Virus record (IMG/VR): IMGVR_UViG_2740892036_000008
Origin: a virus
Lineage: Duplodnaviria; Heunggongvirae; Uroviricota; Caudoviricetes
Length of the DNA: 9,196 bases
Strand: one strand, 5' to 3'
Both the position numbers and the translations under genes were made by a program. The notes under the pieces are model-generated. The model made no database searches. It was not told the origin of the DNA and was given only the letters and a program-made list of their open reading frames with translations. Position 1 is the first letter of the stretch, and each line of letters begins with the position of its first letter. Of the stretch, positions 1,956-9,196 are shown one piece after another.

Positions 1956-4715
1956 TTATTCTTCTGGCTGGCTGCTTTCCTCATCCATGAAGTTGAGCAC
2001 ATAAACGCGAATTTGCCGCCCTCCTTCCCTTACCCGCCCCTGATAACCTCGCCCGCTCGTTGGTGGTGTTAGCATTCCTGCATTCTTGAGAACTTCGGCA
2101 AACTGCCTGACATTAAAACCCCGTGCGATCTCCTGCTCAAATGTTGCCGGGAAGGTGTAGAAAATTATCGGGTCGCCGTCGTGGTTCCCCTTCTTCCTGT
2201 ACCCGGCTAAATCACGGATGGGTAAATCGCGCGGGTCATAACCCAGCGGCGCGAATCTACTCAGCCCATAGGCATTTAAAAACGCCTCCGTCTGCTCGAT
2301 GATCTGCTGGTGCTCTTTGTTCCCCGTGCCGAACTCTTTCAGCCATGCGTTATAGGTGTGCTGTATCGCATCCCGGCACGTTTGAGCATCCCAGCCAGTA
2401 ACCACGCCACCCAGCAGTAAAGCGGCCTCCAGAATGGCGAACCTCGCCCCTACACGGTGAACCTGTTCCCCATAGTCAGCAGGGATTAGACTTCGCCATC
2501 GGGCTTCACACTCACGAACGGCATCAATCGCCTGCTGCTGGTGGTCTGAAAGCCATCTAATCCACTCCCGCCCGGCAGCGCCATGATGGTGCTGGTAAGC
2601 GTCTTTCAGCGCGTCGGCGTGATCTTTCCCTGTCTGGTGCTCATGAAAGCGCACCGCCTTACTCAGCGGGATATTCAGCAGTCGCACCAGTTGCCCCGCT
2701 TTTGTCTTGCGTCCTGCGGTGGCGATGAACGTTTCTAAATCCATTTCCCCGGTGCTGATTGCCACGGTGCGCCAGCGTTTCAGATCCCGGTTGCCTCCTT
2801 CCTTTGCTCCCTGCAATTTCCCCACGCCGTTAAACAGGGCATAGGCAGACTGAGAAACGCTTATCGGGTCTGCGCCCTGTCCGACTTCATCCAGCGGCAT
2901 CAGCCCGTCATTGTGGGCGGCGGCCTCGTTTATCAGCCCCAGCGCCGTCCCATACCACGTCAGGCGCAAGGCATCAGGGTTGCCGTAAAGACTGCTCGCC
3001 ACGTTCTGCGTGGTTGTTTTCCCGGCGCTCGATTGCTCATAAAAATGAATCCCGAATCCGTCACGATCTGCCACCCCGATTAATGGCGCTGCCAGTGCTG
3101 CGGCGATGCCTGTCATCATCGCGTAGTTGCCGTATGCCAGCCGCGCAACACTGTTAAGCCAGCTTTCAGGCGTTCCTGCTACGGTATACCCGGCAGCGGC
3201 TGAACTGCGCCCGCTGAACAAAACAGGCCGCTGAGGTGTGCCGATGATTTCCCCGTCCGGCATGATGTATGCCCCACACTGCCAGCCTGTAGCATGAGCA
3301 ACGCGCCACAATTCACGCGAGCCGCTTCGCTGTAACCAGTCGGCAAGAATCGCCCGTAGGCTGTTTTTCGTTGTGACGTTGACGCCACCAGCTTTCAGGG
3401 TGCGCCAGCCTTCACGCTCGCCAATATCAGCCAGCGGGATAGCCGCTGTTGTCCGTATGCCTGCACCGAATGCCAGCCATGAGATAATAAGATACTGATC
3501 TTTGTCGTCGCGTCCCGTGCCGATAACCTCCAACGGTGAACATAACCAGCTTTCAGCGTTGATGATCTCCCCGCTTTCCTTGTCCACCTTCGGCGTTACC
3601 CAGAAAACGCCATCTTTTCGGCTCTCAATGTGGGGTTTTAGTGGGTCTTTCTCTGGATGGTCAGTTTTACCGCCCTCAATGGCCTGCAATCGTGGTTTAA
3701 CGGCTTCCCCTTGAATCTGGTACATCGAGTCGTTAAACGCAGCCGTAGCGACTTCCAGCCCGTTTTGCTGGTGGTGGTCGTTCCAGTCGGCTTTGTAGTC
3801 TGTCGGCGGCAGTGCCACCCATCCAGCCACGGACAAGGCGGCTTTCTCTGCGGCCTCCCTGCCTGTATTGGCTTCTCCGTTTTGGTGGTGGTCGTTGTCT
3901 GCGGCGATGATTATTTGTGCCTGTGGATACTTCCGGCGCATCACTTCGGCAACGGGTAGCAGGTTGCCCGCGTCAATTGCTGCCACTGCCAGCGCGTCCG
4001 GGCGCATCAGGTGAACTGAAAGGGCCGTCGCCAGCCCCTCGGCAATTAAAACGCTCTGCGGCGATTCTGGCGCGTTTACGGCGTGATATGCCCCGCGCTT
4101 TGCCGAACCCGTCAGAAGTCGCTTTTCTCCATGCGGTGTAATGGTCTGCGCTGCTGCCACTGCGCCGGATTCATCCACCAGCTCCAGCAATAACGAACCA
4201 TCTGGCATTAGCGGGTAATTAAACCCGGTCAGCCCTTTTGATTGCAGGTACTCAGCTTCGCCCTGTATGGCTCTCTGGCGCATTCCGGCATACAGACGGG
4301 AAAACGTAGCCCGGCGCTGCTCTGCGTCCTCTGCGGCCTTTTTCTGTCGCTCCTGCTCATGCCGCTGGCGGTCTGCGGCTAACTGCGTCTGTCTCTGGCT
4401 GGCAGCGTCTGGTGCTGGTTCTGCGGCCCGGTAATCAATACCCAGCACATCAGCGGCAAGGTGCGCCGCCTCCGTGGTGTCGCAGTTGTTAACCCGTTTG
4501 ATTAAATCCAGCCCATCGCCCGCGCCGCACTGATTGCAGATAAAGCTACCTCGCCCGTTGTCGTCGAATCTGAAACGGTCTTTCCCACCACATGCAGGGC
4601 AGGGGGCATGACGGCGCGATGAATCAGGAACGTCGATAGACAGGCCAGCCAGCACATAAGGCCATTTACCAGCGGCGGCGCTGGTCACTTCGCGGATAAT
4701 GTCGATATTACGCAT
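1956..4715 (-). CDS. primase-helicase, P4 alpha-like (zinc-ribbon primase + Toprim + P-loop helicase)
   Basis: 919 aa; ATG at 4715-4713 preceded by AGGGAGG 8 nt upstream; TAA at 1958-1956. N-terminal zinc ribbon CPACGGKDRFRFDDNGRGSFICNQCGAGDG; Toprim-like acidic motif IIIAADNDHHQNGEANTGREAAEKAA; Walker A EQSSAGKTT in the C-terminal half. Confidence 0.9.
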   Translation of the reverse strand: MRNIDIIREVTSAAAGKWPYVLAGLSIDVPDSSRRHAPCPACGGKDRFRFDDNGRGSFICNQCGAGDGLDLIKRVNNCDTTEAAHLAADVLGIDYRAAEPAPDAASQRQTQLAADRQRHEQERQKKAAEDAEQRRATFSRLYAGMRQRAIQGEAEYLQSKGLTGFNYPLMPDGSLLLELVDESGAVAAAQTITPHGEKRLLTGSAKRGAYHAVNAPESPQSVLIAEGLATALSVHLMRPDALAVAAIDAGNLLPVAEVMRRKYPQAQIIIAADNDHHQNGEANTGREAAEKAALSVAGWVALPPTDYKADWNDHHQQNGLEVATAAFNDSMYQIQGEAVKPRLQAIEGGKTDHPEKDPLKPHIESRKDGVFWVTPKVDKESGEIINAESWLCSPLEVIGTGRDDKDQYLIISWLAFGAGIRTTAAIPLADIGEREGWRTLKAGGVNVTTKNSLRAILADWLQRSGSRELWRVAHATGWQCGAYIMPDGEIIGTPQRPVLFSGRSSAAAGYTVAGTPESWLNSVARLAYGNYAMMTGIAAALAAPLIGVADRDGFGIHFYEQSSAGKTTTQNVASSLYGNPDALRLTWYGTALGLINEAAAHNDGLMPLDEVGQGADPISVSQSAYALFNGVGKLQGAKEGGNRDLKRWRTVAISTGEMDLETFIATAGRKTKAGQLVRLLNIPLSKAVRFHEHQTGKDHADALKDAYQHHHGAAGREWIRWLSDHQQQAIDAVRECEARWRSLIPADYGEQVHRVGARFAILEAALLLGGVVTGWDAQTCRDAIQHTYNAWLKEFGTGNKEHQQIIEQTEAFLNAYGLSRFAPLGYDPRDLPIRDLAGYRKKGNHDGDPIIFYTFPATFEQEIARGFNVRQFAEVLKNAGMLTPPTSGRGYQGRVREGGRQIRVYVLNFMDEESSQPEE

Positions 4716-5616: not shown

Positions 5617-5792
5617 GCTGCCACCTCACGAATGCGGGTAATCTGGATGTGGGAAAGGCGTTCATTTCTGGCCTGATTTAGCGCCTCAGCTTTGGCGCTG
5701 ATCGCGCTGCGGGCGTCAACGATATAAACGAACTCGACTAATTCGCCGCTCCGGGCGGTGGCGCATCCTGCAACACGGAAGTAATTAAGCAT
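5613..5792 (-). CDS. hypothetical small protein (59 aa from ATG; 69 aa if the TTG at 5822 is used)
   Basis: ATG at 5792-5790 preceded by AGGGGG 5 nt upstream; overlaps the Icd-like stop by 8 nt. The ORF-track start at 5822 is TTG and lies inside the Icd-like CDS, so the ATG is preferred. Confidence 0.45.
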   Translation of the reverse strand: MLNYFRVAGCATARSGELVEFVYIVDARSAISAKAEALNQARNERLSHIQITRIREVAA

Positions 5793-5976
5793 GTGCGCCC
5801 CCTGTGCGAATACGTCCGGCAAAAAAGCAAACGTGATCCCGCGCCAGAATGCGGCGGGCTTCCTGCTCAGTTTCTGCGGCGATATGGTGAATTTTGGCGG
5901 TAATTGTCGGCATGTCGCGGCGAACGGCTGCGATTAACCAGATAAATTGTGGATTTTGGGTAGGGGTAGTAGCCAT
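5785..5976 (-). CDS. Icd-like host cell-division inhibitor family small protein (63 aa)
   Basis: ATG at 5976-5974 with GAGG 8 nt upstream; TAA at 5787-5785. Sequence MATTPTQNPQFIWLIAAVRRD...FAGRIRTGGAHA resembles the short Icd-like proteins found ahead of primase genes in P4-like elements (from memory). Only the C-terminal 63 codons of the 257-aa ORF in the track are taken as coding. Confidence 0.6.
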   Translation of the reverse strand: MATTPTQNPQFIWLIAAVRRDMPTITAKIHHIAAETEQEARRILARDHVCFFAGRIRTGGAHA

Positions 5977-6496
5977 GATGGCAGCCTCTATACAGTGAAT
6001 TTTGAATTCACCACCAAGAGACGCCAATCTCAGACTGGTGGTGAGCTGAACAAGGTTGGCGTAACCGGCCTGTATAGACACCGGCCTTCCTTTCGGAAGC
6101 CTCATCCAGCCCACCATAATTTGGGTGCGCAGGAATTTTGCCGACAAAAAAACACGCTTAGTGCGTGTCGGCACTATACAGGTTATCGGGACGCCAATCC
6201 CGGCACCTGATTTTGCAGGTGCGCTATAACCATAAACCGGGTTGGCGATAGTCGGCAAGCCCTTTTTTATGGACTCGCAAAACTCACCTTCGCGCGTGCG
6301 CGTACTGGTCGCAAAACTCGAAAAAAACTTAGGATTTATTAGGATTCGCAGCCCAATTCTCAGCCCAGAAAACGCCTCTAAAATGTCGTCATTTGTCGCA
6401 ACGGCGCGGCGATGAATGTCAGGTTTTGACAGGTTGTAAGGGTTAACATTTGTTAACAGGCTAGCCAGATTAAAGGCTTCTTTCTGGGCGGCAGGT
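5977..6496 (-). ncRNA. candidate structured leader / immunity-type antisense RNA region (C4/CI-like, boundaries unknown)
   Basis: 520 bp with no convincing ORF start on the transcribed strand. 9-bp perfect inverted repeat TCACCACCA/TGGTGGTGA (6008-6016 / 6036-6044, 19-nt loop); minus-strand hairpin CUUCC-GAAA-GGAAG (6086-6099); terminator-like hairpin at 6140-6172; tandem TTAGGATT (6329-6336, 6339-6346); paired GTTAAC palindromes (6442-6447, 6452-6457). Position ahead of an icd-like gene matches P1 immI (c4-icd-ant) and the P4 CI RNA leader. Confidence 0.3.
6140..6172 (-). terminator. intrinsic-terminator-like hairpin with U-tract inside the leader
   Basis: On the minus strand: stem ACACGC/GCGUGU (6163-6168 pairs with 6152-6157), 5-nt loop, followed by six U (forward A-run 6146-6151); flanked by a further inverted repeat GCCGAC/GTCGGC (6140-6145 / 6167-6172). 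About 170 nt upstream of the Icd-like start. Confidence 0.4.
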
Positions 6497-6679
6497 TCAT
6501 TCAGTATCACGGCGCACCTCCACGAACTCCTTAACGAATCTCTCCAAAGGCTGAACACATGGCGACTGATAGCCCTCGCGGTAAAAGGTCACTCGGTTAT
6601 GCTCGACGCGCTGTACGGTCACTACAGCCCCGTGCGAATCCTTGTAACGGCTTCCCGGCATCGGATTATGGTTACGCAT
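6497..6679 (-). CDS. small protein (60 aa), DUF4222-like (tentative)
   Basis: ATG at 6679-6677 with GGAGG 6 nt upstream; overlaps the antirepressor stop by 8 nt; TGA at 6499-6497. Pattern YKDSHGAVVTVQRVEHNRVTFYREGY resembles small prophage DUF4222 proteins as I recall them (not searched). Confidence 0.5.
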   Translation of the reverse strand: MRNHNPMPGSRYKDSHGAVVTVQRVEHNRVTFYREGYQSPCVQPLERFVKEFVEVRRDTE

Positions 6680-7505
6680 GGTTTACCTCCAGACGTTTAG
6701 CGAGCCAGCGTTGCGACAGGCGGGTGAGTTCTCCTTTGCGCTGCTCATATTCCATGCCCATATCAATTAACGTGATATTGGTGCTTTCGAGATATGAGAG
6801 GTGCTCAAGCTGTTCTGCGTTCATATGGTCGCGAGGTTCGCCAGAATAGCCATTTATCCGCGCCCACTGCTTAGCAGTTAGCCCACCAAGAACGATACGA
6901 GAAATCATATTGCTCTCGTTTGTGTAGTGGTGTTGCTGCGTCGTTTTACCCATCTCGGCACGGGCCATATTCAGCGCATCGCACATCGGCTTAAAGTTGT
7001 TTGCGGCACTGATACGGGCTTTTAGCTGGCGACGATAGCGGGCGGCGATTTCAGGCACGCTACGCTGTAATTCTTCCTCGCACTGGATGAAATAACGGCG
7101 GATAGCGCGGCCCTGTTCGGTGCGTTCGATCATTGCCAGTTCTTTCGCCATTCCGACACTTAACAGATAGTCTTTGCCGGGTCTGCCAGAGTGCTTAATC
7201 TTGCTGTAAGCCGCGCCATTCGGGCTTTTCCCCAAATTTGGGGAAATAGTTTTATGGACTGAGTAATCGTGCCCAATGGTGAAGTCATATTCAGAGATGC
7301 GATCAGTGATCCATGTAGAGAAGTCTTTTCCCACGCCCAACGCTTTGTGTAACGCTTTTGCGCTAACAATATTGGTTTCACGCCCACCGATATGACCAGG
7401 AATAACCGGGACAATTGCGGCAAATTCATTACCGTTAATTGTGCCCTGATAGGCGTTCAGATGAGGGGCGGCCTCAGAAATTAATCTGCTTTTTTCGATG
7501 TTCAT
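6672..7505 (-). CDS. phage antirepressor-like protein (Bro-N / KilAC-type domains, tentative)
   Basis: 277 aa; ATG at 7505-7503 with GGAG upstream; TAA at 6674-6672. Central motif DYLLSVGMAKELAMIERTEQGRAIRRYFIQCEEEL is characteristic of phage antirepressor (Ant/KilAC-type) proteins; N-terminal segment IVSAKALHKALGVGKDFSTWITDRI is compatible with a Bro-N/KilA-N-like fold. Confidence 0.65.
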   Translation of the reverse strand: MNIEKSRLISEAAPHLNAYQGTINGNEFAAIVPVIPGHIGGRETNIVSAKALHKALGVGKDFSTWITDRISEYDFTIGHDYSVHKTISPNLGKSPNGAAYSKIKHSGRPGKDYLLSVGMAKELAMIERTEQGRAIRRYFIQCEEELQRSVPEIAARYRRQLKARISAANNFKPMCDALNMARAEMGKTTQQHHYTNESNMISRIVLGGLTAKQWARINGYSGEPRDHMNAEQLEHLSYLESTNITLIDMGMEYEQRKGELTRLSQRWLAKRLEVNHA

Positions 7506-7517
7506 TTTCAGTCTCCG

Positions 7518-7952
7518 TTAGGCGGCGGTGAGATTGTCCGGGTATAGATTGAGAATGTCGGCAATTTCAGGCTGAGAAAGTCCCTGATAGCCCCCAGCGT
7601 CGGCGTTATGGTTCACAAGCCGAATAACTTTTAGAACGTCACCGCGCCCGGTAAAGCGATAGCGTAAATGTGACCCGATCCCGTCGGGATTCTTTTCGTC
7701 GATACGCTCTAACTGAATATCAAGCCTGCGTTCTAACTCGCTGGCGTAGTTCCTTCCAGACGAAAGGCGGCAGTAGCGCAGAATGTCGTTTTCTGTCCAT
7801 CCCTCTACCCCAGTGCGTAGCATATAGACGCGGGCGCGGTGCTTCTTCGGTGTGCGGCGTGGCGCTTGTGTGGTGGGCGCTGGTGGCGTAACATCAGATC
7901 CGCGAATATCTATGTTAGCCGCCTGCTGTCCGGGGCGGTTTTCTTTTTTCAT
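7518..7952 (-). CDS. hypothetical protein (144 aa), basic Pro/Thr-rich N-terminus
   Basis: ATG at 7952-7950 overlaps the AlpA stop (ATGA); AAGGTGG upstream; TAA at 7520-7518, 12 nt before the antirepressor start. No family recognised. Confidence 0.6.
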   Translation of the reverse strand: MKKENRPGQQAANIDIRGSDVTPPAPTTQAPRRTPKKHRARVYMLRTGVEGWTENDILRYCRLSSGRNYASELERRLDIQLERIDEKNPDGIGSHLRYRFTGRGDVLKVIRLVNHNADAGGYQGLSQPEIADILNLYPDNLTAA

Positions 7953-8170
7953 CAGGCCACCTTCCCGCGACGCTCTGCCAGCCAGTTGTTAATCTCTACC
8001 GCATCAAAGGCGGTAATCTTCTCGCCCAGCTTTACCGGGCGCGGCAGAACCCCATTGCGAACTTTGCGATCAATGGTGGAAACGCTAACGCCCAGCAATT
8101 CAGCAAGGCGGAAGCGTCGGATATAGCCAGATTGGGGGATTGTGTGGGTTGTTGCGTTATGTGTTGCCAT
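7952..8170 (-). CDS. alpA: AlpA-family phage transcriptional regulator (HTH, Vis/AlpA-like)
   Basis: 72 aa; ATG at 8170-8168. Sequence RRFRLAELLGVSVSTIDRKVRNGVLPRPVKLGEKITAFDAVEINNWLAERR matches the AlpA/Vis helix-turn-helix pattern. First gene of a tightly packed co-directional gene string. Confidence 0.8.
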   Translation of the reverse strand: MATHNATTHTIPQSGYIRRFRLAELLGVSVSTIDRKVRNGVLPRPVKLGEKITAFDAVEINNWLAERRGKVA

Positions 8171-8262
8171 ATGTCCCGTAACCTCTTTTGATGGTTGTTG
8201 CTTCGTTACGGGTATGATGGGAGCAATAGATTGTAATGTATCGGAATTATTAGAAAACTCCC

Positions 8263-8281
8263 CGGAATTTTCATAATTCCG
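8263..8281 (-). terminator. possible weak terminator hairpin immediately after the cargo gene stop
   Basis: On the minus strand: CGGAAUU-AUGAA-AAUUCCG (7-bp stem, 5-nt loop) directly 3' of the stop codon at 8284-8282, with UUUU a few nt further on. AU-rich stem, so weak. Confidence 0.25.
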
Positions 8282-9196
8282 TTATCGGTTGACTCCCCCT
8301 TTTCGCAGCCAATCTATAAGCGTCTTATCATCATCCGGGAGTGGTAGCTCCTCACCTTTATTGTTAGCTTTATTTCTCAGTTGTGTAATGCTGCCTTTTA
8401 AATCACTATCGGTTAAGCCTATACGTTTAAGTAATGCGACAATTAGTCTCATCTGTTTTTCTGTTGTTTTTACTGGTTTTCCTACATTCATTTCCGTCGG
8501 CGGTAAGGGAATAACACCTCCGTTAATCATGCTTTTAATCGGCTCGCCTGTGTCTATTGCGTCTTTGAGTTTTAAAATGGTATCTCTGGCAATAAATAGA
8601 TCGGAAGTTGTCAAAGTCTCATTAAGCGCAGGTTTTCGGCTCTCACTTAACTGAAACCCTATGCTTTCGGCTAGTTGTCTGTTTAGCGTAGGTAGCCAGC
8701 TCTGATTAAAATATCTATCGCTAATTATCTGACACGAAAGGCCAGTCTTCTCGCGGAAAGTGTCCCATCCGAACGGCCTGAAAATTGTCGTGTCTATCAC
8801 CCTTGCCCTCTTAGAATAAAGAAGACTTTCTATTTCACTGTGTCCCAGACACCATAGCCCGTTCGCCAATCCTCTAAATAAAATAAGCCCACTATCTGTT
8901 TTGTATGCGTCATGTTCGGTGAGCGTGGAATTAAAATGAGATATATAGTTGCCCTCACGAAAAAGAAATGATGAGTTTCCTTTGTGTTCGTGATAAAACT
9001 CAATTGGGTCTTTTATATCTTTACCGCCTATAAAAGCCAAAGTAGAAGAAAATCCTCTCATCATTATACACAACGGTATAGCCCCAATAACTCCATAGTG
9101 AAGTAAATCATCTGTATCGCATTGCAGGTGATGCTGCCAACTTACTGATTTAGTGTATGATGGTGTTTTTGAGGTGCTCCAGTGGCTTCTGTTTCT
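8282..9196 (-). CDS. hypothetical cargo protein, AT-rich, 5' end probably outside the window
   Basis: TAA at 8284-8282. ORF-track start is TTG at 9073 (ATG at 9064 and 9061), but the same frame stays open with no stop up to the window edge at 9196, so the true start may lie beyond the window. Region 8220-9196 is visibly lower in G+C (about 40%) than the rest (about 55%), with different codon usage. No family recognised. Confidence 0.5.
   Translation of the reverse strand, partial: RNRSHWSTSKTPSYTKSVSWQHHLQCDTDDLLHYGVIGAIPLCIMMRGFSSTLAFIGGKDIKDPIEFYHEHKGNSSFLFREGNYISHFNSTLTEHDAYKTDSGLILFRGLANGLWCLGHSEIESLLYSKRARVIDTTIFRPFGWDTFREKTGLSCQIISDRYFNQSWLPTLNRQLAESIGFQLSESRKPALNETLTTSDLFIARDTILKLKDAIDTGEPIKSMINGGVIPLPPTEMNVGKPVKTTEKQMRLIVALLKRIGLTDSDLKGSITQLRNKANNKGEELPLPDDDKTLIDWLRKGGVNR

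Follow-up and report, generated by a model that had tools for sequence, protein, structure and literature searches.

A leader of 520 bases (5977-6496) lies on the minus strand of the window (the whole 9,196-nucleotide stretch of DNA analysed here) between a DUF4222 gene and an icd-like gene that precedes a primase, and it raises the question of whether such a stretch acts as RNA, as part of a protein, or through its translation. The leader contains a C4/CI-type antisense immunity RNA together with its target sites, carried in an E. coli phage-satellite island, and we consider it very probable that the minus-strand segment 5785-6521 as a whole is a P4-type immunity switch gating the replication operon in a phage-inducible chromosomal island (PICI) of the EcCIMP1 type. 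An immunity RNA like P1 c4 or P4 CI in the leader of the icd-like/primase operon had been proposed in a preliminary description, and a match to the C4 family above its gathering score supports that proposal. The module is a further copy of a known system and not a new kind; C4 and isrK matches in Gram-negative PICIs were reported in 2023 (PMC10111431).

The Infernal search against Rfam suggested in that description returned three families above their curated thresholds, isrK/SeqA, C4 and c4-a1b1, all on the minus strand (Table 1); weak matches to several miRNA and snoRNA families fell well short of the respective gathering scores and were put down to chance. C4 was present in all 18 related loci scanned and isrK in 17 of them (L018 gave no isrK match), each at a fixed distance from icd, and the 281-nt module has a folding z-score of -4.88.

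Table 1 Features of the immunity module, in order of transcription (coordinates are those of the window)
Feature	Position	Strand	Basis or description
Shine-Dalgarno GGAGG of eta-like ORF	6517..6521	-	read from sequence, 6 nt before GTG 6510
eta-like ORF, 241 codons from GTG 6510	5785..6510	-	PGAP CDS; open frame
Candidate internal promoter (P4 PLE counterpart)	6229..6258	-	inspection, P4 alignment, conservation
c4-a1b1 targets	6183-6235	-	Rfam, 48.4 bits vs gathering 46.7, E=5.3e-10
SeqA/IsrK-type short RNA	6147..6222	-	Rfam isrK RF01394, 75.8 bits vs gathering 50, E=2.9e-15
b1 target GAUUGGCGUC	6190..6199	-	same 10-mer as b2
a1 target CCUGUAUAG	6174..6182	-	complementary to a' loop, 9 nt, 100%
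Intrinsic terminator	6146..6169	-	stem GACACGC/GCGUGUU, loop ACUAA, U-run
C4/CI-type antisense immunity RNA, 88 nt	6034..6121	-	Rfam C4 RF01695 (clan CL00128), 72.4 bits vs gathering 45, E=5e-13
a' recognition loop UCUAUACAG	6070..6078	-	complementarity and covariation
b' recognition segment ACGCCAA	6056..6062	-	bulge between a' hairpin and closing stem
b2 target GAUUGGCGUC, seqC side	6020..6029	-	7 bp with b'; direct repeat of b1
UUGGUGGUGA segment between b2 and a2	6008..6016	-	9-bp inverted repeat with 6036-6044
a2 target CUGUAUAGAGG	5985..5995	-	9/9 complementary to a'
Icd-like/Kil-like gene, 63 aa, ATG 5976	5785..5976	-	nested at 3' end of eta-like ORF

The C4 model is matched over its full length (positions 1-87), and the RNA is composed of a 17-bp closing stem (6116-6100 with 6055-6039), the GAAA hairpin (6099-6086), the a' hairpin (6085-6064), the single-stranded b' segment and a 3' CCA (6038-6036), with a minimum free energy of -42.5 kcal/mol and a z-score of -5.06. 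Covariation was assessed in 17 related loci against shuffles. Helices 3-5 of the C4 RNA are 96.5-100% paired in these loci, values reached by none of 500 shuffles, and changes on both sides occur in 10 of 17, five of five and one of five pairs of helices 3, 4 and 5, respectively; helix 4 is the GAAA hairpin, CUUCC-GAAA-GGAAG, whose compensatory changes in relatives therefore extend to every pair. The closing stem is tRNA-like, and the CCA follows it directly, an indirect sign of processing by RNase P.

A second RNA, of the SeqA/IsrK type, lies upstream. The isrK match covers model positions 1-77, the 3' intrinsic terminator included, and the RNA consists of hairpin 1 (6222-6203), hairpin 2 (6202-6187, with b1 in its loop), a1 and the terminator; its folding z-score is -3.69, and helices 1 and 2 co-vary across the 17 loci. 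The terminator stem spans 6169-6151, followed by a U-run down to about 6146, and on its outside the hairpin can be extended by 8 bp (6139-6146 with 6166-6173); a hairpin with U-tract occurs at this site in each of the 15 relatives folded. Minus-strand scans of the sequence outside 6001-6399 leave it the sole terminator-like site, and none was found on that strand between icd and the primase gene. An arrangement in which a1 is part of an anti-terminator hairpin that C4 binding breaks was considered and rejected as a general mechanism; the window sequence folds so, but 12 of the 15 relatives form the terminator regardless.

The three structural elements singled out in the preliminary description all exist at the coordinates given there. 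The terminator-like hairpin with its U-tract is real and lies where it had been put, although it is not internal to the immunity RNA as had been thought: it stands upstream of C4 and is the 3' end of the separate isrK/SeqA-like RNA. The GAAA-tetraloop hairpin at 6086-6099 comes first of the two hairpins that the C4 closing stem encloses, and the 9-bp perfect inverted repeat is confirmed as 6008-6016 with 6036-6044.

Both recognition elements of the C4 RNA have a target on either side of it, and these pairings are where the relatives vary in concert. Upstream, the b1 core UUGGCGU (6197-6191) pairs with b' and is paired in 96.6% of cases across the 17 loci, with five of seven pairs changing on both sides, and a1-a' is 92.8% paired with such changes at eight of nine pairs; together the upstream targets are 94.5% paired. 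Downstream, b'-b2 (helix 7) is 98.3% paired, with changes on both sides at five of seven pairs, and a'-a2 (helix 6) is 90% paired, with seven of nine. The a2 target overlaps the Shine-Dalgarno sequence GAGG (5988-5985) of the Icd-like/Kil-like gene, 8 nt before its ATG, and all relatives as well as P4 share such an overlap with the first gene's ribosome-binding site. Between b2 and a2, the segment UUGGUGGUGA can pair with the C4 RNA at the 3' arm of its closing stem and the CCA tail; this repeat is 92.7% paired in the 17 loci, with four both-side pair changes compared with 0.7 in shuffles, and in a fold of 5965-6033 the same segment supplies the 5' strand of a small hairpin (6012-5994) immediately before a2. 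The whole structure is 97% paired, as against 77% in shuffles, and 36 of its pairs change on both sides.

These pairings differ in specificity among the loci. In a specificity matrix, cognate combinations match at 15-16 of 16 positions and non-cognate ones at 9.8 on average, and the 17 loci represent at least 12 a' and at least five b' specificity types. Two IMG/VR scans, one with the a2/b2 pair and one with the C4 core of the same specificity as query, yielded no separate helper-phage target; both led to the same two contigs, each of which has the RNA and its own target.

Transcription of the module may start within the leader. The candidate internal promoter, which we take to be constitutive and the counterpart of P4 PLE, has a -35 hexamer TTGCCG (6258-6253), an 18-nt spacer and a -10 hexamer TATGGT (6234-6229), with a predicted start near 6222. 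It aligns with P4 TTGCCT-18-TATAGT, likewise just ahead of the a1b1 hairpin, and in relatives the hexamers are conserved and the spacer is variable. Since it agrees with the consensus at 8 of 12 positions, under the cut-off of the scanner, and a sigma-70 scan of 5700-6800 returned no minus-strand promoter, the assignment rests on P4 alignment and conservation. Upstream of the promoter, leaders carry zero to three copies of a repeated 12-mer, ACCAGTACGCGC, always on the transcribed strand; we rejected the idea that these are replication iterons; the obvious iteron array lies elsewhere, at 1645-1956.

P1 c4 and P4 CI belong to one RNA family, and of the analogies proposed for this leader the one with P4, an immunity RNA in the leader of a primase operon, fits best. 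The Rfam C4 model scores 74.9 bits on the P4 cI region, and the isrK model 60.8 bits on P4 seqA with its terminator. The P4 immunity region is ordered PLE, seqA, cI/CI RNA, seqC and the nested eta/kil, followed by the epsilon-orf151-alpha primase operon; here the order of parts is identical, the internal promoter has the same place relative to the first hairpin, and the module likewise stands ahead of a primase operon. In P4, too, a2/seqC lies over AGGAGG-N8-ATG, with the protein beginning MATT, the 214-aa eta ORF (8812-8168) ends as the 65-aa kil (ATG 8365), and the long ORF starts beside an upstream stop, the P4 eta start site being MMMPALQKLPFSGL. Translation of eta prevents immunity-specific termination in P4, and Kil is toxic. 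The differences concern specificity and surroundings: a' and b' are UCUAUACAG and ACGCCAA here but CCUGUGAA and UUCUCAC in P4, about 210 extra nucleotides of variable, repeat-containing sequence separate the eta start from the promoter, and the seqA-to-C4 spacer is 25 nt compared with 107. Furthermore, the long ORF adjoins and is presumably coupled to DUF4222, whereas P4 eta is coupled to the AlpA homologue (orf88); AntA, DUF4222 and a 144-aa ORF are inserted upstream; and the primase is of the TOPRIM-DUF927 type and not P4 alpha.

Phages P1 and P7 share with this locus the RNA family RF01695, which was defined on them, the pairing of a'/b' with both a1/b1 and a2/b2, the overlap of the downstream target with the icd ribosome-binding site, and a first gene with an Icd-like domain. 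The P1 c4-icd-ant operon is treated in PMC8198154. As known from the literature and Rfam, the output of P1 is the antirepressor Ant downstream of icd, whereas here it would be a primase operon, and the P1-type immI layout, with ant right after icd, does not occur at this locus. The preliminary description had cited an antirepressor gene in favour of the P1 analogy; an AntA-domain gene does exist (6672-7505), but it lies upstream of the leader and hence is not the regulated gene in the way that ant is in P1.

The third relative, the IsrK/orf45 (STnc1160)/anrP region of Gifsy-1, offers the alternative that survives best. There, IsrK is described as structurally homologous to P4 SeqA, and downstream of IsrK a processed RNA some 80 nt long was detected (PMC4825925). 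Both loci have a two-hairpin RNA with terminator, then a processed RNA of that size, here predicted, and a gene; the two RNAs share complementary segments, and an ORF is translated, here putatively, across the C4-like region. In Gifsy-1, in contrast, the downstream gene encodes an antirepressor, the short orf45 stops where anrP starts, and activation was shown for the short RNA, which binds Hfq there. By analogy, the RNA at 6222-6147 could act in trans to open an inactive structure or titrate C4, and thus switch the downstream ORF on. The isrK family is the best Rfam match, terminator included, in the minimum free energy fold of the 281-nt leader a1/b1 and a'/b' are paired in cis, as in IsrK 'structure A' (PMC4825925), and there is an in-frame AUG at 6117, +106 relative to the predicted start, compared with +107 for Gifsy-1 orf45. 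That AUG has no Shine-Dalgarno sequence, however, and by protein and gene order the nearest homologue is the P4 system, which is repressive. Activation is in any case compatible with a repressive C4 RNA, as the same parts can repress and be titrated; as a replacement for it we regard activation as unlikely.

A second alternative is raised by the long reading frame. The preliminary description saw no credible ORF start in the leader, yet the GGAGG and GTG 6510 provide one that is conserved in relatives, in a frame that is open for 257 codons (6558-5785). The eta-like ORF crosses promoter, SeqA, C4 and seqC and shares its frame with the Icd-like/Kil-like ORF. The GTG at 6510 precedes the DUF4222 stop (6499-6497) by 8 nt, a spacing suggestive of translational coupling to DUF4222; relatives have GGAGG or GGGGG and an ATG that adjoins, overlaps or lies within a few nucleotides of the stop of the upstream gene, and share an N-terminal peptide M..A.Q.KAFPLAGL. 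No stop interrupts the frame anywhere in the leader in any of the 21 loci, and in 18 it is in register with the Icd-like gene, the same frame being stop-free over the 300 nt upstream of icd; the other three have a different stop-free frame, while other frames in the leaders contain 2-9 stops per 100 codons. The distances from the seqA motif to the ATG (234, 240, 264, 267, 276 and 321) are all multiples of three. In EcCIMP1 and three relatives the long frame is out of register with icd, so that an Eta-Icd fusion is not essential.

The region might accordingly encode the first 178 residues of an 'Icd-like/Ash family' protein of 241 aa, with the RNA motifs incidental. The PGAP CDS, the conserved start and Shine-Dalgarno sequence, the frame open in every locus and a match of Pfam PF10554 to residues 110-202 would all be expected of a protein, but the substitutions would not. 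Counts by codon position are 190/236/168 in the upstream zone and 739/791/779 in the RNA zone, with no excess at third positions, and synonymous to non-synonymous counts of 72:276 and 242:564 are near neutral and indicate no amino-acid constraint. The Icd-like part, by comparison, shows mismatches of 637/480/2183 by codon position and 1658 synonymous versus 395 non-synonymous changes, the mark of strong purifying selection. The variable positions are exactly the stems and loop-target pairs, with compensatory changes, and three RNA models exceed their curated thresholds. PF10554 matches the same stretch of the P4 long ORF, with which the eta-like ORF shares 37% identity over 128 aa (BLASTP against P4 cI-ORF, E=2e-12), and this stretch spans the P4 promoter-SeqA-CI-seqC sequence, where the immunity factor is an RNA. 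We therefore consider a protein with incidental RNA motifs very improbable. Translation of the region as an N-terminal extension of the Icd-like protein had been held to speak against an immunity RNA; this is a false alternative, because P4 eta spans the CI RNA and ends as kil, and that nested layout is conserved here.

That the leader is a cis-acting attenuator or riboswitch-like element, without any trans-acting RNA, has a negligible chance of being correct: the leader terminator, a competing hairpin (6176-6159) in the window sequence and a weak Trp-leader match (E=9.4) would fit it, but the competing hairpin is not conserved, the terminator forms in 12 of 15 relatives whether or not a1 is blocked, the Trp-leader match reaches 18 bits against a gathering score of 41, and duplicated targets co-varying with the C4 loops are the hallmark of antisense regulation.

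Returning to the P4-type switch, we infer promoter activity, RNA processing, RNA stability, Rho termination and eta translation at this locus from P4, P1 and Gifsy-1 IsrK, and propose the following course of events. In the quiescent island, the internal promoter would be constitutively active and most transcripts would end at the terminator. Read-through transcripts would be processed, by RNase P as in P1 and P4, to a stable C4 RNA of about 80 nt (77-80), which would repress the downstream genes by a block of translation and premature termination: C4 would pair with a2/b2 on nascent transcripts and keep the Icd-like gene from being translated, and the untranslated RNA, C-rich and G-poor (28 C and 13 G in the first 80 nt of the Icd-like gene), would undergo Rho termination, so that no primase is made. 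Pairing with a1/b1 may add early termination, autoregulation or titration, and the SeqA/IsrK-type RNA might bind Hfq and act on read-through transcripts in trans; whether a1/b1 pairing represses or activates is uncertain here, because the Gifsy-1 short RNA activates rather than represses. A helper phage would then activate an upstream promoter, probably before alpA; our search found no convincing upstream late promoter, and one weak 9/12 match (8274-8246). Ribosomes on the resulting transcripts would enter the eta-like ORF at GTG 6510 and cross SeqA, C4 and seqC, stopping both C4 action and Rho termination, and the replication genes would be transcribed despite immunity. Such a switch suggests how islands of this kind stay silent until a helper phage drives upstream transcription. 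The P4 mechanism is taken here from the summaries in PMC4825925 and in PMC10111431, which describes the CI RNA as the immunity factor, located inside the eta ORF, and eta translation as overriding immunity.

By this account the eta-like frame would be kept open for the act of translation and not for its product. We combine this with a second proposal, that a' and b' form a combinatorial address, and offer the two jointly and tentatively, at a little short of even chances. If the first holds, selection would keep some 240 codons stop-free and in register through three functional RNAs, with their amino acids unconstrained, for the sole purpose of allowing ribosomes on upstream transcripts to override RNA immunity. 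The comparative data give clean in silico support for the idea that P4 eta acts by being translated rather than by the protein it encodes. Up to six C4 modules occur in one E. coli genome, in satellites and lambdoid prophages, and if the second holds, as many as six per genome could keep independent immunities or selectively cross-talk.

The 63-aa Icd-like protein (NCBIfam phage_ICD_like, 73.1 bits) aligns with P4 Kil, having EAAIMATT and AAVRR in common, and is judged from this alignment to be its homologue. It is followed by ORFs of 69, 87 and 208 aa and then by the TOPRIM-DUF927 primase, with Zn-ribbon, Toprim_3 and DUF927 domains. By gene content and order, the host element is an EcCIMP1-type PICI, inserted between yicC and dinD. 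EcCIMP1 itself, the PICI of E. coli MP1 whose mobilisation by phage Kapi1 was shown by experiment (PMC11773190), has the same order of int, alpA-like HTH, hypothetical, AntA, DUF4222, ash/Icd-like module, small ORFs, TOPRIM-DUF927 primase, PerC and pRiA4b ORF-3, with blastn identities of 69-93% (NZ_CP139039) in AntA/DUF4222, the RNA module, the phrog_1515 ORF, the primase and PerC. It differs in sitting by tRNA-Thr near proA in MP1, in its C4 specificity (b' CUGCGAA), in a single nucleotide that puts the ash ORF out of frame with icd, and in DNA-ejection protein and lytic transglycosylase genes downstream of the primase, both absent from the island in the window. A P4-like satellite in the strict sense is not indicated, as psu, sid, delta, epsilon and P4 alpha were absent from Pfam and PHROG searches of 10 window proteins and from the PGAP annotation of the whole island.

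The biology is hence confirmatory, a P4-type RNA immunity switch ahead of EcCIMP1-type PICI replication genes, and the practical value lies in the annotation of RNA modules now called protein. RefSeq labels the whole RNA module a 241-aa 'Icd-like' protein, and an 'ash family protein' in relatives, which is a mislabel; PF10554 'Ash' amounts to the promoter-SeqA-CI-seqC region in translated form. PF10554 gave no match to P4 epsilon. The same family is in use as an epsilon marker for finding P4-like satellites.

The preliminary description proposed an immunity RNA in the leader ahead of the icd-like gene (5977-6496, minus strand), and an Rfam scan of the whole window returned three matches above curated thresholds, all on the minus strand and all inside this region, among them the C4 antisense RNA that such a reading calls for. 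Folding z-scores against shuffled sequence are -5.06 for the C4 match, -3.69 for the isrK match and -4.88 for the 281-nt module. The C4 RNA comprises a 17-bp closing stem, a GAAA hairpin, a second hairpin and the single-stranded recognition segment b'; the downstream target a2 includes a GAGG Shine-Dalgarno 8 nt before ATG 5976. The structural elements first described are indeed present: a terminator-like hairpin (stem 6169-6151 plus U-run, terminator scan), a GAAA-tetraloop hairpin (6099-6086), and a perfect 9-bp inverted repeat pairing 6008-6016 with 6036-6044 (repeat analysis). This repeat joins the C4 3' arm and CCA to the segment between b2 and a2, is kept in relatives with some compensatory change, and is an alternative pairing possible only in unprocessed transcripts.

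Genes, RNA matches and C4 recognition (a', b') and target (a1/b1, a2/b2) segments in the window
Feature	Position	Strand	Remarks
AlpA-like HTH	7952-8170	minus	
144-aa ORF	between AlpA-like HTH and AntA-domain gene in listed order	minus	
AntA-domain protein	6672-7505	minus	
DUF4222 protein	6497-6679	minus	
isrK	6147-6222	minus	Rfam, 75.8 bits
a1/b1 targets of C4	6183-6235	minus	Rfam, 48.4 bits
b1, UUGGCGU	isrK-type RNA, upstream of C4	minus	in hairpin loop
a1, CCUGUAUAG	isrK-type RNA	minus	directly before terminator
C4 antisense RNA	6034-6121	minus	Rfam, 72.4 bits
a', UCUAUACAG	6078-6070	minus	loop of second C4 hairpin
b', ACGCCAA	6062-6056	minus	single-stranded in C4
b2, GAUUGGCGUC	6029-6020	minus	recurs downstream of C4
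a2, CUGUAUAGAGG	5995-5985	minus	recurs downstream of C4
63-aa ORF, 'Icd-like' domain	ATG 5976 to stop 5785	minus	NCBIfam
Three small ORFs	between Icd-like ORF and primase	minus	
919-aa Zn-ribbon/Toprim/DUF927 primase	1956-4715	minus	

We compared the module with 20 related loci from other Enterobacterales, retrieved via the Icd-like protein. C4 was found in 18/18 scanned loci and isrK in 17/18 (no match in locus L018), and both keep a constant spacing to the icd start. In an alignment of 17 non-redundant modules, P4 included, the RNA helices together with a'-a2 and b'-b2 are 97% paired vs 77% in shuffles, with 36 pairs changed on both sides, and sliding the partners drops pairing to 36-45%. 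The upstream pairings, a1-a' and b1-b', are 94.5% paired, with 13 of 16 pairs changed on both sides. RNA-target scores are 15-16 of 16 for cognate combinations and average 9.8 for non-cognate ones, across at least 12 a' and at least 5 b' variants. This pattern of pairing, covariation and specificity is what one would expect of an antisense immunity system that exists in many specificities. Of 5426 complete E. coli genomes, 2651 contain sequences related to the module, and a single genome can carry as many as 6; distinct a'/b' specificities would be needed for co-resident copies to stay independent.

P1 c4 and P4 CI had been offered as two analogies; they are one family, because the C4 model, isrK and the long ORF all match P4 (NC_001609). 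There, in the same arrangement of parts, C4 matches the cI region (74.9 bits), isrK matches the seqA region and terminator (60.8 bits), BLASTP aligns the cI/eta ORF with the long ORF of the window (E=2e-12), and the surroundings of the kil start are nearly identical to the window's (AGGAGGCUGCCAUCAUGGCUAC). P4 is a closer model than P1, because the module stands ahead of the primase operon. Strictly, the island does not count as a P4-like satellite: psu, sid, delta and epsilon are absent and its primase is different. EcCIMP1, a phage-inducible chromosomal island (PICI) mobilised by phage Kapi1 (PMC11773190), has its gene order in common with the island at 69-93% nucleotide identity and carries the same RNA module with different specificity. 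C4 and isrK profiles matching Gram-negative PICIs, with CI inside eta, were published in 2023 (PMC10111431), and the window module is therefore a new member of a known system.

The earlier view that the leader has no credible ORF start was mistaken, as the Icd-like gene's frame is open from 6558 and PGAP calls a 241-aa CDS from GTG 6510, with GGAGG ahead, starting 8 nt before the DUF4222 stop. Within 300 nt upstream of icd, this eta-like frame is stop-free in 18/21 loci, other frames having 2-9 stops; the remaining three keep a different frame stop-free. Relatives, P4 among them, keep a Shine-Dalgarno with a start adjoining the stop of the preceding gene, as well as a short N-terminal peptide, and the seqA hairpin lies at six distinct distances from the icd ATG, every one a multiple of three. 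Substitutions by codon position are unbiased upstream of the promoter (190/236/168) and in the RNA zone (739/791/779), with synonymous and non-synonymous changes in near-neutral proportion before the Icd-like part, which itself gives 637/480/2183, with 1658 synonymous vs 395 non-synonymous. The frame is therefore kept open while its peptide is not conserved. This matches P4 eta, which starts upstream of a constitutive internal promoter, contains CI, ends as Kil, is translated only from the upstream late promoter and, when translated, prevents termination (PMC10111431).

Upstream of the promoter (6236-6496, minus), the eta-like frame spans 25-218 codons among relatives with no amino-acid constraint. 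Recurring nucleotide modules build up this stretch: ACCAGTACGCGC occurs 0-3 times upstream of the promoter, always on the transcribed strand, GAGUUUUGCGA twice (6319-6309 and 6285-6275, minus) and ATTC[G/T]CAGCCCA in tandem at 6344-6367, alongside two palindromes, GTTAACAAATGTTAAC (6457-6442) and TGTCAAAACCTGACA (6431-6417). In the relative from Pantoea sp. 1.19 (locus L019, 3131-4183), the eta-like start is kept and a 351-codon frame ends in an Icd-like domain; this locus gave no C4 or isrK match and has different sequence in place of the RNA module.

From the observed parts, their complementarity and co-variation, and the nested ORFs, we infer a scheme in which an internal promoter, TTGCCG-18-TATGGT (6258-6229), a candidate by alignment to the P4 promoter, would fire constitutively, with many transcripts ending at 6146. 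Read-through transcripts would be processed to C4, which would pair with a2/b2 and block icd-like translation; the C-rich, G-poor RNA may then be terminated by Rho ahead of the primase. Scans found no terminator-like site from icd to primase. Helper-induced upstream transcription would be translated through the eta-like frame, escaping C4 control. In Gifsy-1, IsrK, a homologue of the short RNA, can also be an activator (PMC4825925). Within the closing stem of C4, the 5' arm contains an in-frame AUG (6115-6117, minus) that has no Shine-Dalgarno. Counted from the predicted start of transcription it is at +106, the same place as in the Gifsy-1 IsrK locus, where orf45 has its first AUG at +107.

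The minus strand is the coding strand for every gene in the window. Many E. coli strains carry chromosomal islands 100% identical to the window; in strain D5, the island is flanked by yicC and a duplicated dinD, and it additionally has integrase, SSB and PerC. The intergenic region separating the SSB gene from the primase stop (1645-1956) is AT-rich. Inside it the 9-10-mer TGTTGTCTC(A) occurs at least 13 times, in direct and inverted orientation, with a 54-nt imperfect inverted repeat enclosing these copies; the region accounts for spurious miRNA-family matches located there and probably serves as the origin of replication of the island. The Rfam int-alpA RNA motif (RF02996), above threshold in 11/18 related loci (L002-L019) between integrase and alpA, about 2.5-3.7 kb upstream of icd, gave no match in the window with E-values allowed up to 10 (corresponding stretch 8171-8281).

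By-products of the analysis concern annotation. Both in the window (5953-6231, minus, 45 bits) and in P4 eta (8330-8704 of the P4 locus, L022, minus, 82 bits), what PF10554 ('Phage_ASH') recognises is the conceptually translated promoter-SeqA-C4-seqC stretch. P4 epsilon is not among its matches and instead hits PF25738 (Pfam); PF10554 served as the epsilon/Ash marker in one P4-like satellite survey (PMC8628076). PGAP names PF10554-matching ORFs 'ash family protein', the RNA module is labelled as protein in RefSeq, and the E. coli module copies underlie CDSs annotated as ash family, Rha, Bro-N, Ant or Icd-like.
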